Below are positions 27,343 through 29,180 of a stretch of 64,000 nt of DNA, piece by piece. The notes below the pieces were generated by a model that was not told where the DNA came from, made no database searches, and saw only the letters and a list, made by a program, of their open reading frames with translations. This DNA is from a virus, in IMG/VR virus record IMGVR_UViG_3300017917_004390, positions 29,193 through 93,192 of that record; one strand, given 5' to 3'. Numbering within the stretch: the first letter of the stretch is position 1; each line of letters starts with the position of its first letter. The translations under genes and the position numbers were made by a program.

Positions 27343-27789
27343 ATGAATTATACACAAGAACAGAAAGACCTATTACTTGATAAATTATTTGATGGAGTTG
27401 TTTGTCTCAATATTTATCGTAGAATTGATATTATACATAAAAATAATAAAATTTCATGGTACAAACCAAAATATAATTTTTTTTGGTTAAATTACCATCA
27501 AATATGGCAATTTTTTGAAAACAAAAATGGTTCTAATTACCAAGAAATCAAAGACTTAACTGAGGGTATCCTGAAAGACCTTATAAAACAAAAGGAACTC
27601 ACAACTGCACCCGACCGGACCTTTTGGCATATAGACCTGAAAGACCTTATAAAACAAAAGGAACTCACAACAACCGAACCATTTGTACACTCCGCTCAAC
27701 TCCTGAAAGACCTTATAAAACAAAAGGAACTCACAACGCTTCCTGAATTACTTTTTGATTTTCTTAACCTGAAATACCTTACAATATGA
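27343..27789 (+). CDS. Repeat-associated paralog 1 (unknown function); C-terminus encoded by a CRISPR-like array
   Basis: MNYTQEQKDLLLDKLFDGVV family; LKDLIKQKELTT occurs three times, separated by 10 unique residues. Confidence 0.8.
   Translation: MNYTQEQKDLLLDKLFDGVVCLNIYRRIDIIHKNNKISWYKPKYNFFWLNYHQIWQFFENKNGSNYQEIKDLTEGILKDLIKQKELTTAPDRTFWHIDLKDLIKQKELTTTEPFVHSAQLLKDLIKQKELTTLPELLFDFLNLKYLTI
27570..27784. CRISPR. CRISPR-like mini-array: 3 identical 36-nt repeats, a partial 4th repeat and three 30-nt spacers
   Basis: CCTGAAAGACCTTATAAAACAAAAGGAACTCACAAC at 27570-27605, 27636-27671 and 27702-27737; partial CCTGAAATACCTTACAA at 27768-27784; unique spacers at 27606-27635, 27672-27701 and 27738-27767. 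Confidence 0.85.
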
Positions 27790-28073
27790 ATTATACCCAA
27801 GAACAGAAACAATTATTACTCGATAATCTCTTTGATGGGGTTGTTTATTTTAATATTTTTGAAGATATCAATATTATTCATAGAAATCGTTTTTTTTCAA
27901 TATATCAACTAAAATATAACAAGTTTTGGTTAAGTCAACCTAACATTTGGAGATTTTTTGAAAATGAAAAAAGAAATAACTTCTATCAAATCATTGAATT
28001 AACACAAAATATCCTGAAAGACCTTACAAAACAAAAAAATATTAGAACTGAAAACTTACGACTGAAAATTTAG
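27786..28073 (+). CDS. Repeat-associated paralog 2
   Basis: MNYTQEQKQLLLDNLFDGVV; ends in a degenerate repeat. Confidence 0.8.
   Translation: MNYTQEQKQLLLDNLFDGVVYFNIFEDINIIHRNRFFSIYQLKYNKFWLSQPNIWRFFENEKRNNFYQIIELTQNILKDLTKQKNIRTENLRLKI
28013..28048. repeat. Degenerate copy of the 36-nt repeat
   Basis: CCTGAAAGACCTTACAAAACAAAAAAATATTAGAAC, about 7 mismatches. Confidence 0.7.
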
Positions 28074-28103
28074 AACAATAGTTCTAATACTCATAATTAA
28101 TAT

Positions 28104-28457
28104 ATGACCTACACACAAGAACAAAAAGACCTCTTACTTGATAAACTCTTTGATGGAGTAATTTGTCTGGATATCTATAATAATATTGAAATTATACATA
28201 AAAATAGTAATATATCATATTATATATTTGGAAGTAATACTTTTAGATTAAGTTGGAGTAATATTTGGAAATTTTTTGAGAATGAAAAAAATGATAATCA
28301 ACAAGAAATTGAAGAATTAACATCTAATATCTTAATAGACCTTACAAAACGAGAGGGAATTAAAACACATCAACGCTATACTTCAATAGAATGGAGCGAA
28401 TATCGACTTAAAAATCCGAATATTACAATTCAAGAAATAATTTTTCGTTATTTTTAA
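28104..28457 (+). CDS. Repeat-associated paralog 3
   Basis: MTYTQEQKDLLLDKLFDGVI. Confidence 0.8.
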   Translation: MTYTQEQKDLLLDKLFDGVICLDIYNNIEIIHKNSNISYYIFGSNTFRLSWSNIWKFFENEKNDNQQEIEELTSNILIDLTKREGIKTHQRYTSIEWSEYRLKNPNITIQEIIFRYF

Positions 28458-28515
28458 GACCATGTTTTTCGAAAAGAAACGAATAATATCTATTACCCTA
28501 ATAGACCTTACAAAA
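28331..28515. repeat. Variant 36-nt repeat (28331-28366) and matching partial repeat (28497-28515)
   Basis: CTTAATAGACCTTACAAAACGAGAGGGAATTAAAAC and CCTAATAGACCTTACAAAA. Confidence 0.65.
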
Positions 28516-28524
28516 TAATATTAT

Positions 28525-28848
28525 ATGAAATACACACAAGAACAAAAAGACCTACTACTTGACCGTCTCTTTGATGGAGTTGTTTTTTTTAATATATATG
28601 ATACAATTCGTATTACACATATAAATAATAAAAAATCATGGTACAACCCAAAAACTAGTCTATTTTGGTTAAGCTATAGTAATATTTGGCATTTTTTTGA
28701 GAATGAAAATATATATAATTTTCAAGAAATCAAATACTTAATTGAGCCTATCCTGAGAGACACTACAGAACGAAAGGAACTCACAACTAACGCTTGGATG
28801 GATATTGCTCGATGCTGTCTAAAAAGAAAGGAACTTACAAAACAATAA
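28525..28848 (+). CDS. Repeat-associated paralog 4
   Basis: MKYTQEQKDLLLDRLFDGVV. Confidence 0.8.
   Translation: MKYTQEQKDLLLDRLFDGVVFFNIYDTIRITHINNKKSWYNPKTSLFWLSYSNIWHFFENENIYNFQEIKYLIEPILRDTTERKELTTNAWMDIARCCLKRKELTKQ
28752..28845. CRISPR. Repeat, 30-nt spacer and eroded repeat unit
   Basis: CCTGAGAGACACTACAGAACGAAAGGAACTCACAAC at 28752-28787; spacer TAACGCTTGGATGGATATTGCTCGATGCTG; remnant TCTAAAAAGAAAGGAACTTACAAAAC. Confidence 0.65.
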
Positions 28849-28851
28849 AAT

Positions 28852-29133
28852 ATGACTTACACACAAGAACAAAAAGAACTACTACTTGACAAACTCTTTG
28901 ATGGAGTTGTTTGTATGGATATCTACTATGATATTGATATTATTCATAGAAGTTATGGGTTATCATACTACAACCCAAAAACTAATGAATTTGTGTTAAG
29001 CTATAATTATATTTGGAAGTTTTTTGAGAATGAAAATAGAGATAATTACTATGAAATCGAAGAATTAATATCTAGTATCCTGAGAGACACTACAGAACGA
29101 AAGGAACTTATAACAAATTATTGGCGGGGCTGA
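28852..29133 (+). CDS. Repeat-associated paralog 5
   Basis: MTYTQEQKELLLDKLFDGVV; stops at a TGA inside the spacer. Confidence 0.8.
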   Translation: MTYTQEQKELLLDKLFDGVVCMDIYYDIDIIHRSYGLSYYNPKTNEFVLSYNYIWKFFENENRDNYYEIEELISSILRDTTERKELITNYWRG

Positions 29134-29180
29134 AATCGAAGACCACTGAGAGACCTTACAAAACAAAAGGAACTCACAAC
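29079..29180. CRISPR. Repeat, 30-nt spacer and repeat unit
   Basis: Repeats at 29079-29114 and 29145-29180 (ACTGAGAGACCTTACAAAACAAAAGGAACTCACAAC); spacer AAATTATTGGCGGGGCTGAAATCGAAGACC. Confidence 0.75.

Follow-up and report, generated by a model that had tools for sequence, protein, structure and literature searches.

A run of five tandem genes in an AT-rich phage genome carries short blocks that resemble CRISPR arrays, raising the question of whether their spacers are guides against a target or something else. The window analysed here is a 64,000-nt stretch of IMG/VR virus record IMGVR_UViG_3300017917_004390, a phage record of 93,192 nt with 25.6% GC. The preliminary description of the locus regarded its five 30-nt units (S1 to S5) as spacers acquired from host DNA or competing mobile elements, pointing to inter-virus competition or host-gene silencing. 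We arrive at a different reading, to which we give an even chance: the five units may be the variable inserts of CRISPR-type mini-arrays, captured in trans and translated together with a small-protein gene family. In appearance they are closer to captured peptide cassettes of 10 residues than to guides directed at a known target.

Mini-arrays in a tandem gene family

The mini-arrays alternate a 36-nt repeat with 30-nt spacers (66 nt, or 22 codons, per unit), and their onset falls within the last 12 codons of each of five tandem paralogous genes. On re-reading, the coordinates, letters and GC counts previously given for S1 to S5 proved exact. The features are as follows, with the basis of the call in brackets where one was recorded:

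27343..27789, + strand: paralog 1, 148 aa (ORF list, family alignment, profile matches)
27570..27605, + strand: repeat 1 of array 1, 36 nt (exact copy, register)
27606..27635, + strand: spacer S1, 16/30 GC, in frame, without stop
27636..27671, + strand: repeat 2 of array 1, identical to repeat 1 (exact copy)
27672..27701, + strand: spacer S2, 14/30 GC, in frame, without stop
27702..27737, + strand: repeat 3 of array 1, identical to repeat 1 (exact copy)
27738..27767, + strand: spacer S3, 8/30 GC (no outlier), in frame, without stop
27768..27789, + strand: terminal repeat of array 1, truncated and degenerate, 13 mismatches to the repeat (read from sequence)
27786..28073, + strand: paralog 2, 95 aa (ORF list, family alignment)
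28013-28048, + strand: single degenerate repeat of paralog 2, 81% identical, followed by a short variable tail
28104..28457, + strand: paralog 3, 117 aa, with a decayed array remnant (ORF list, family alignment)
28331-28366, + strand: degenerate repeat of paralog 3, 73% identical
28495-28515, + strand: partial repeat 3' of the paralog 3 stop
28525..28848, + strand: paralog 4, 107 aa, its ORF crossing S4 into a shortened second repeat (ORF list, alignment)
28752..28787, + strand: repeat of unit 4, 84% identical to repeat 1
28788..28817, + strand: spacer S4, 14/30 GC, in frame, without stop
28818..28841, + strand: terminal repeat of unit 4, lacking 12 nt internally (read from sequence)
28852..29133, + strand: paralog 5, 93 aa, terminating at a TGA within S5 (ORF list, family alignment)
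29079..29114, + strand: repeat of unit 5, 78% identical to repeat 1 and 92% to the unit 4 repeat
29115..29144, + strand: spacer S5, 14/30 GC, five codons in frame and then a TGA
29145..29180, + strand: second repeat of unit 5, full-length, 3' of the stop codon, 33/36 identical to repeat 1

The array 1 repeat occurs in three exact copies within that array and in one further copy with 3 mismatches, where shuffled sequences give an expectation of 0 for either. Paralog 1 consists of the conserved domain followed by three in-frame repeat–spacer units, its ORF crossing all three spacers, and repeat 1 codes for the last 12 residues of the conserved part. The paralog 1 stop overlaps the paralog 2 start, and the terminal repeat of array 1 extends into both.

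Four further AT-rich phage records show the same gene-plus-array design, which brings the total to 46 spacers (42 of 30 nt, three of 29 nt and one of 27 nt), and 12 of the 13 clusters with a periodicity of ~66 nt lie at the 3' ends of family genes. Repeats within one array are often 100% identical, with unrelated inserts between them, repeats from different arrays of a single phage share 50–85% identity, and the terminal, gene-distal repeat is degenerate in nearly every array of the five records. The geometry, the gene-distal repeat decay and the tight link between arrays and gene family in five phage records are established, as are the foreign composition and mutual unrelatedness of the spacers described below.

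Members of the family are small phage proteins of about 90 residues. Their domain belongs to no Pfam or PHROG family, and its fold has no PDB match (Foldseek E > 0.3, VIA Z < 5); paralog 4 was modelled with AlphaFold at a pLDDT of 79. BFVD gave weak matches only, to uncharacterised phage paralogs, and a search of the ESM Atlas with the domain returned nothing. The three closest relatives in a profile search are encoded on contigs of 87,252, 67,223 and 46,565 nt; a related-locus search of viral and metagenome contigs found none. Neighbours of the arrays include a metallophosphatase-like protein, a PolB-exo-like exonuclease and an amidase, most phage genes being unannotated. No array-associated effector gene was found among these neighbours, no neighbour gene is conserved in the relatives, and no processing enzyme was noticed near the genes.

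Composition and source of the inserts

The 30-mers of the phage record average 7.7 GC, with 1.8% of them at 14/30 or more and 0.35% at 16/30 or more. Because of this distribution S1, S2, S4 and S5 are compositional outliers and S3 is ordinary; the earlier statement that the spacers are mostly much GC-richer than the phage holds for four units and not for S3. Read in frame, the five units have a third-position GC of 0.33 versus 0.127 in phage ORFs, and each GC-rich unit exceeds the GC predicted from its own peptide under phage codon usage, two measures that rule out GC-richness as a pure effect of amino-acid choice. The amino-acid composition of the cassettes fits random DNA of 44% GC, not the phage proteome. 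The wider comparison took in 46 spacers from five phage records, with tests in the three records that held enough spacers: mean spacer GC was 0.43, 0.39 and 0.32 against backgrounds of 0.26, 0.29 and 0.25 (P ≤ 2.5e-4 each). Third-position GC was 0.27–0.33 in spacers versus 0.13–0.19. GC excess also showed polarity, at 0.126 in gene-proximal spacers versus 0.067 (P = 0.012), a weak signal carried by 8 of 12 arrays. These data support a spacer composition foreign to the phage at all codon positions, which fits captured DNA and is the main sequence-level argument for capture over evolution in situ. A foreign origin of the spacers is plausible, and their composition points the hunt for donors to genomes of roughly 40–50% GC.

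Spacer identity was 0.29 within arrays and 0.27 between records (five records), so the spacers are mutually unrelated, as had been claimed. Against the remainder of the 93,192-nt record, both strands included, the closest matches of the units had 9–13 mismatches, and the units are therefore neither self-matching nor locally duplicated. The preliminary description had noticed no self-match within the window, and this now extends to the full record; local duplication, which it had named as the opposing origin, was not seen in the phage's own record and is ruled out by mismatch counts there and in the related records.

Searches for protospacers in the phage's own contig and the four related records (470 kb in all) gave best matches equal to those of shuffled controls, and the five related records held no spacer match with ≤6 mismatches, as for shuffled spacers. 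No protospacer was found in GenBank phages, PLSDB plasmids or 401 Flavobacteriales genomes, nor in IMG/VR with exact 20-nt cores of S1, S2, S4 and S5. A match of S3 to Vibrio replicons (28/30, E = 0.1) was intergenic and AT-rich, and was dismissed as chance. With no protospacer found, neither a PAM nor a strand bias could be derived. Inter-virus competition and host-gene silencing are consequently left unsupported, protospacers being absent from all databases searched, and the check proposed with that idea, a protospacer with a consistent flank, came out negative, so that the targeting reading fails in these databases. Acquisition from host DNA or mobile elements fared better, since the foreign composition fits captured DNA, but the searches found no donor.

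Translation of the arrays and class of the repeat

Translation of the units did not feature in the preliminary description. In-frame stops occur in 4 of the 46 spacers, versus 16 and 22 in the other two frames (Fisher P = 6e-5); GC at the three codon positions of the spacers is 0.40, 0.35 and 0.30, and repeat variants number 24, 20 and 40 by codon position, following codon degeneracy. The strong depletion of in-frame stops, together with codon-degenerate repeat variants, therefore shows that the arrays are selected to be translated, with selection acting to keep the frame open across the inserts. The ORF spans 32 of the 46 spacers; the other 14 lie beyond the ORF end, where the repeats are intact. 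Arrays likewise extend with intact repeats past stop codons and frameshifts, also after 29-nt spacers, and the repeat of one record (G004) lies in a different reading frame; these features speak for an entity at the level of DNA or RNA. In fused forms of 760, 346 and 281 aa, every cassette is in frame. An alternative genetic code for the TGA in S5 was rejected, as long ORFs gain only ~10% in length when TGA is taken as sense, and 62 of 75 long ORFs end in TAA.

As expected of a tandem protein repeat, the period is a multiple of three, the array lies inside an ORF and coding constraint is evident; related spacers, genome-like composition and confinement to the ORF, equally expected, were not found. 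The array has every property by which standard CRISPR finders recognise an array and yet is translated, and it is a clean example of this. Very divergent members whose repeats differ in DNA sequence keep the layout of 12 plus 10 residues, and the arrangement of a conserved leader with recognition-flanked variable cores is precursor-peptide-like, in resemblance only. The 5-residue tail of paralog 5 is also found in a homolog on another contig (P0012) although the two proteins are only ~60% identical (by eye), and at least that insert is therefore old. Tryptophan makes up 5.3% of the tails of close relatives versus 1.4% expected, an enrichment absent in distant relatives; in the close relatives, this hints at selection on peptides rather than neutral capture.

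The 36-nt repeat, ~30-nt spacers and degenerate leader-distal repeat agree with the geometry of type VI-B and II-C arrays. Repeats of the relatives resemble type II-C/VI-B CRISPR repeats, scoring best against verified ones, and over their first 28 nt the closest of 33 repeat types were one that adjoins Cas13b (L048) and one that adjoins Cas9 and Cas1 (L013). The window repeat shares only its 3' half with verified II-C/VI-B repeats (18–22/36, ungapped), and lacks both the 5' GTTG and the terminal stem: only two of its four terminal positions pair, and its folding energy is −1.7 kcal/mol (z = −0.2), versus −7.3 for a verified VI-B repeat. Arrays are co-oriented with the upstream gene, and the repeat orientation is that of crRNA sense. 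Neither the window nor the four relatives matched an Rfam CRISPR-DR family, no anti-repeat or tracrRNA-like sequence rose above shuffle level in 93 kb, and cas1, cas2, cas9 and cas13b were absent from the five phage records (4–81% complete). A periodic 8-mer scan of genome contigs returned at least 120 loci, and among the matches listed none was more than 23/36 identical to the repeat. In JGI metagenomes, the 20-nt 3' end of the repeat gave five single chance matches and no array with the window repeat. A doubled 14-mer at 66-nt spacing occurred in 0 of 401 genomes (the class of a Chryseobacterium genome).

Competing explanations and known systems

Under the reading that we favour, the inserts would be captured from non-phage DNA by an integrase of the Cas1–Cas2 type that works in trans. 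The most plausible candidate is the type II-C module of the host, a kind of module known to load cas1-less VI-B arrays; the gene body would act as leader, and the final 36 nt of the gene would be the repeat that undergoes duplication. Frame-keeping inserts would persist, each encoding a cassette of 10 residues flanked by the 12-residue repeat peptide, and GC-richness would mark a GC-richer source, slowly eroded by the AT-biased mutation of the phage, especially at third codon positions. More tentatively, and at somewhat short of even chances, we propose that a host II-C Cas1–Cas2 (probably) writes 30-bp pieces of foreign DNA into phage genes, where those in frame are kept, turning CRISPR adaptation chemistry into protein diversity by means of 10-residue C-terminal cassettes. 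Several observations weigh against capture. No source was found for any spacer in the databases searched, no cas1, cas2, cas9 or cas13b in the five records (one of them 81% complete), and no bacterial or metagenomic array with the window repeat. The integrase would have to tolerate repeats of 50–85% identity within one phage, and a window repeat that folds weakly and is without 5' GTTG and terminal stem. Polarity is weak (8/12 arrays), the paralog 5 insert is old by virtue of the tail common to P0012, and the Trp-rich tails of close relatives hint at selection on peptides.

Pure protein evolution would dispense with an integrase altogether: unequal crossing-over together with diversifying selection would produce tandem 22-residue repeats, each a 12-residue conserved motif with a 10-residue hypervariable linker, and the likeness to CRISPR would be convergent. 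As a sub-case, the genes would encode multi-core precursors similar to those of cyanobactins, in which a conserved leader domain precedes variable cores bordered by recognition motifs. A period in multiples of three, the depletion of in-frame stops, the codon-position pattern in both repeats and spacers, the fused multi-domain ORFs, the Trp-rich tails and the failure to find cas genes or donors all suit this account, as does the persistence of the 12 + 10 layout in very divergent members despite differing repeat DNA. We nonetheless consider it unlikely. Duplication and mutation should leave similarity between neighbouring cassettes, yet identity within arrays (0.29) hardly exceeds that between records (0.27); cassettes evolved in situ should be AT-biased, yet their third-position GC is about twice the ORF value; and repeats are often 100% identical within an array whose inserts are unrelated. 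Intact arrays beyond stops and after 29-nt spacers, one-sided decay at the gene-distal end and a specific similarity of the repeats to II-C/VI-B repeats argue the same way, and the precursor sub-case would call for a processing enzyme, none of which was noticed near the genes.

The model of the preliminary description, in which host Cas13b or Cas9 would process the arrays into crRNAs against competing phages, plasmids or host genes and translation would be incidental, draws on known Cas-less virus-borne mini-arrays that use host Cas proteins (PMC6858448, PMC7099407), on the crRNA-sense orientation of the repeats and co-orientation with the upstream gene, and on the foreign composition of the spacers. 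It is improbable in our judgement: protospacers are absent everywhere searched, related phages included; known mini-arrays have host-identical repeats, whereas here each array of one phage has its own repeat variant and no host array with the window repeat was found in the collections scanned; the window repeat lacks the VI-B terminal stem and folds at only −1.7 kcal/mol; no anti-repeat was found; and under this model neither the scarcity of in-frame stops nor the codon pattern of the repeat variants is accounted for. Still fainter is the prospect that the repeats are decoys, mimicking host CRISPR repeats so as to sequester Cas effectors or divert the adaptation machinery, with spacers as by-products. 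Solitary phage repeat units do act as RNA anti-CRISPRs (PMC10651486), a broad-spectrum decoy might well come in many repeat variants per phage, and spacers without matches are what this model predicts; known RNA anti-CRISPRs, though, consist of a lone repeat that closely resembles the host's, the collections scanned yielded no host repeat of this kind, and neither selection for translation nor conservation of the upstream protein domain is explained. DGRs, integrons and shufflons were set aside from anatomy only, as inserts are wholly unrelated rather than adenine-mutated and there are no inverted repeats.

If a host integrase does write into these genes, the GC-rich spacers of the window would be recently captured host or other non-phage DNA, and if the inserts are captured DNA at all, jumbo phages would possess a natural system for writing new peptides into a gene. 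To our knowledge, there is no earlier case of CRISPR-style integration editing protein-coding sequence rather than building immune memory, and a search of the full-text literature found no description of such translated CRISPR-style arrays. Should no donors exist, the family would still be widespread among phages and uncharacterised, and its route to hypervariable tails unusual.

Among known systems, cyanobactin precursors of the PatE type carry hypervariable cassettes between conserved recognition sequences. The phage genes share with them a conserved N-terminal part, hypervariable cassettes of fixed length and flanking motifs near-invariant at the nucleotide level, but differ in that no processing enzymes were seen, codon usage is foreign, arrays run beyond ORFs and the repeats are CRISPR-like. 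Huge phages with compact cas-less CRISPR arrays were reportedly described by Al-Shayeb et al. in 2020, some spacers being said to match host DNA; the likeness lies in AT-rich jumbo phages with short arrays without adaptation genes. We know of no description of those arrays as translated or as lying in frame within a conserved gene family.

In Flavobacterium columnare, a VI-B array without its own cas1 gains spacers in trans through II-C Cas1, also from the host genome, and is transcribed from the leader end, with a leader-distal repeat end of the ACAAC type (PMC8092290). Our arrays resemble such Bacteroidota VI-B arrays in their 36-nt repeat, ~30-nt spacers, lack of adjoining cas1/cas2 and ACAAC-type leader-distal repeat end (PMC8092290). 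They are unlike them in being phage-borne without an effector gene, in having as 'leader' a protein gene whose last 12 codons are the first repeat, in spacers that are in frame and translated, and in a repeat that varies between arrays of one genome. Virus-borne cas-less mini-CRISPR arrays have host-identical repeats and spacers against closely related viruses (Medvedeva et al. 2019, Iranzo et al. 2020; PMC6858448, PMC7099407); ours are similarly short, lie in viral genomes without cas genes and carry unique spacers, but no host repeat or viral target was found for them, and they occur many to a genome, gene-fused and translated. Racrs, solitary non-coding phage repeats that mimic the host repeat (PMC10651486), are likewise phage-encoded CRISPR-repeat-like elements without cas genes, whereas the elements described here are repeat–spacer arrays under coding constraint.

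Gene-plus-array units in the window and its relatives

The source IMG/VR record (93,192 nt, GC 25.6%, CheckV completeness ~30%), of which the window makes up the 3'-most 64 kb, belongs to a myovirus-like jumbo phage that uses the standard genetic code. Five tandem paralogous genes of 93–148 codons each lie in the window, and the final 12 codons of each paralog's conserved part constitute a 36-nt repeat, which alternates with 30-nt spacers (S1 to S5) to give an array period of 36 + 30 = 66 nt, or 22 codons. The block and other features of the window are as follows:

25780-27339: upstream flank of the block, 519-aa protein weakly matching a metallophosphatase
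27343-27789: gene 1, paralog (S1, 27606-27635; S2, 27672-27701; S3, 27738-27767)
27786-28073: gene 2, paralog
28104-28457: gene 3, paralog
28525-28848: gene 4, paralog (S4, 28788-28817)
28852-29133: gene 5, paralog (S5, 29115-29144)
29224-30542: downstream flank of the block, PolB-exonuclease-like 3'-5' exonuclease and Amidase_2 protein in overlapping ORFs
43565-46270, minus strand: tail sheath protein

None of the flanking neighbours (metallophosphatase-like, exonuclease, Amidase_2) is conserved beside the arrays of relatives. The tail sheath protein (901 aa) has a ~600-residue N-terminal extension ahead of its Pfam sheath domains, and its best phage match is in an uncultured huge phage of 484 kb (26% identity).

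Coordinates and GC counts assigned to the five 30-nt units in the preliminary description were exact. Gene 1 maintains an open frame through all three of its own spacers and gene 4 does so across S4, while gene 5 meets a TGA stop within S5, yet its array carries on beyond the stop with a full-length repeat that matches gene 1's at 33 of 36 positions. The window's phage holds three exact repeat copies and one with three mismatches (chance expectation none), and the final repeat of every unit in the window is truncated or degenerate. S4 and S5 start alike (28788-28800 and 29115-29127), with an in-frame Asn, one residue and Trp; their genes are the closest paralogs, with repeats 92% identical, and the two spacers were probably duplicated along with their gene and diverged afterwards.

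Close homologs of these genes (24, on three other JGI contigs) share the same ~88 conserved residues and end in a hypervariable tail, 3–10 residues long; a few also carry a second repeat. Searching 1.84 billion representatives with a profile recovered 35 more distant members, all of which alternate a 12-residue motif with 10-residue variable cassettes, and which include fused proteins with several domain copies: P0030 (760 aa), P0033 (346 aa) and P0037 (281 aa). P0030 carries up to five domain copies in a single open reading frame, with between one and three repeat-cassette units behind each copy, so the whole gene-plus-array unit can be concatenated into one protein. DNA of distant members was taken from IMG/VR as four whole records (G002 to G005, 24–29% GC), bringing the set to five records with 26 family genes, at whose 3' ends lie 12 of the 13 clusters with ~66-nt periodicity; the only such cluster not adjoining a family gene is G003:C1:46280-46389, with a period of 69. 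Between two array-bearing genes of a related 212-kb phage (L142:7600-8530) is another tandem family, comprising five copies of a 75-nt element, 138–192 nt apart and unrelated to the CRISPR-like repeat.

AlphaFold gave a confident model of the family domain (pLDDT 79), for which no known fold match was found. Its closest structural neighbours in BFVD (A0A6J5LB14, A0A6J5L9L5 and nearby accessions; TM ≤0.54, E = 2e-3) are several uncharacterised proteins of ~105–120 aa, listed under adjacent accession numbers for 'uncultured Caudovirales phage', and may constitute another multi-paralog family of the same fold.

Reading frame and composition of the arrays

When the 46 spacers of the five records are read in register with their repeat, just four are interrupted by a stop codon, whereas the two alternative frames give 16 and 22 interrupted spacers (Fisher P = 6e-5). 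An ORF spans 32 of the 46, and G003 has three arrays, each with five or six spacers, that are wholly open. Spacer GC read in this frame falls across codon positions 1, 2 and 3 (0.40/0.35/0.30), variant sites among repeat copies of a single array are distributed 24/20/40 over the same positions, and repeat codon variants comprise 28 synonymous and 48 non-synonymous. The arrays are thus under selection to keep frame and to be translated.

The impression that the spacers are GC-rich was borne out for S1 (16/30 GC) and for S2, S4 and S5 (14/30 each), which are outliers because so few of the record's 30-mers reach 14 GC (1.8%) or 16 GC (0.35%); S3, with 8/30 GC, is ordinary. In each of the three records whose spacers are numerous enough, spacer GC exceeded background (0.43/0.26, 0.39/0.29 and 0.32/0.25; each P ≤ 2.5e-4), and the excess was greatest at the third codon position (0.27–0.33 vs 0.13–0.19 in phage ORFs). 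Amino-acid composition of 31 cassettes from the window's lineage matches random translation of 44%-GC DNA, unlike the phage proteome, except for an excess of Trp. The foreign look of the spacers is therefore real, general and beyond what amino-acid choice accounts for. Gene-proximal spacers have a higher GC excess than later ones (0.126 vs 0.067, P = 0.012), a weak signal that fits insertion beside the gene and subsequent erosion toward AT.

At the DNA level, spacers were 30 nt long in 42 cases, 29 nt in three and 27 nt in one, and are no more alike within one array (identity 0.29) than between phages (0.27). Copies of the repeat in a given array often match exactly, and the gene-distal copy has degenerated in almost all arrays. 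Beyond the stop codon, several arrays continue with intact repeats in a different frame, having passed a 29-nt spacer or an in-frame stop.

Spacer matches and repeat class

The spacers had been proposed to be of foreign origin, pointing to competition with other viruses or silencing of host genes, with no self-match noticed. The latter holds on both strands of the record, where no second copy of S1–S5 exists (best matches 9–13 mismatches). Window spacers had no match above chance in GenBank phages, in PLSDB plasmids or in 401 Flavobacteriales genomes (where two candidates per genome were scored, which limits sensitivity), and neither did 20-nt cores of S1, S2, S4 and S5 in IMG/VR; a PLSDB match of S3 in Vibrio was intergenic and no better than chance (E = 0.1). 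Best matches in the five related phage records were no better than those of shuffled spacers, and 20 other spacers, from relatives, had no match in GenBank phages.

The array repeats resemble the II-C/VI-B repeat class. Reference repeats were retrieved by a pattern from the 3' end of the window's own repeat, from a Chryseobacterium array adjoining Cas13b (NF038190, E = 1e-272) and an Opitutales array adjoining Cas9 and type II Cas1, and for that reason the comparison omitted the repeats of the window as well as the 3'-terminal 8 nt. Over their first 28 nt, the relatives' repeats scored best against those two references among 33 repeat types (z = 3–5 over shuffles). Array orientation corresponds to crRNA sense, and to that of the upstream gene. 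No cas1, cas2, cas9 or cas13b was present in the five phage records, an anti-repeat was looked for and not found, and none of the bacterial or metagenomic arrays searched carried the window's repeat.

Origin of the arrays and comparison with CRISPR systems

These phages carry arrays of CRISPR geometry whose opening repeat doubles as the last part of a conserved phage gene and whose inserts, unrelated to each other and foreign in composition, are under selection to keep frame. The main rival to a CRISPR-type origin is ordinary protein-repeat evolution, with the CRISPR-like layout convergent; this would account for the coding signals, but leaves unexplained the unrelated inserts between identical repeats, their foreign third-position composition, arrays running past ORFs, one-sided repeat decay and the likeness to a CRISPR repeat class. 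Use of the arrays as targeting guides is without positive evidence, and fits poorly with both array-specific repeat variants and coding constraint. We infer instead that a Cas1-Cas2-type integrase, acting in trans, captures foreign DNA as array inserts, with the gene body playing the role of leader; new inserts would be placed next to the gene, and older ones would erode toward AT.

Hoikkala et al. (PMC8092290) described a VI-B array without cas1 that is loaded in trans by a II-C Cas1 and acquires spacers from the host genome, the VI-B and II-C arrays having only a leader-distal repeat motif in common, and transcription of the VI-B array starting at the leader end. Unlike the VI-B repeat verified beside Cas13b, that of the window lacks the terminal stem, and it folds weakly. 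Full-text literature searching turned up virus-borne mini-arrays, RNA anti-CRISPRs and in-trans VI-B adaptation, but no account of translated CRISPR-type arrays.
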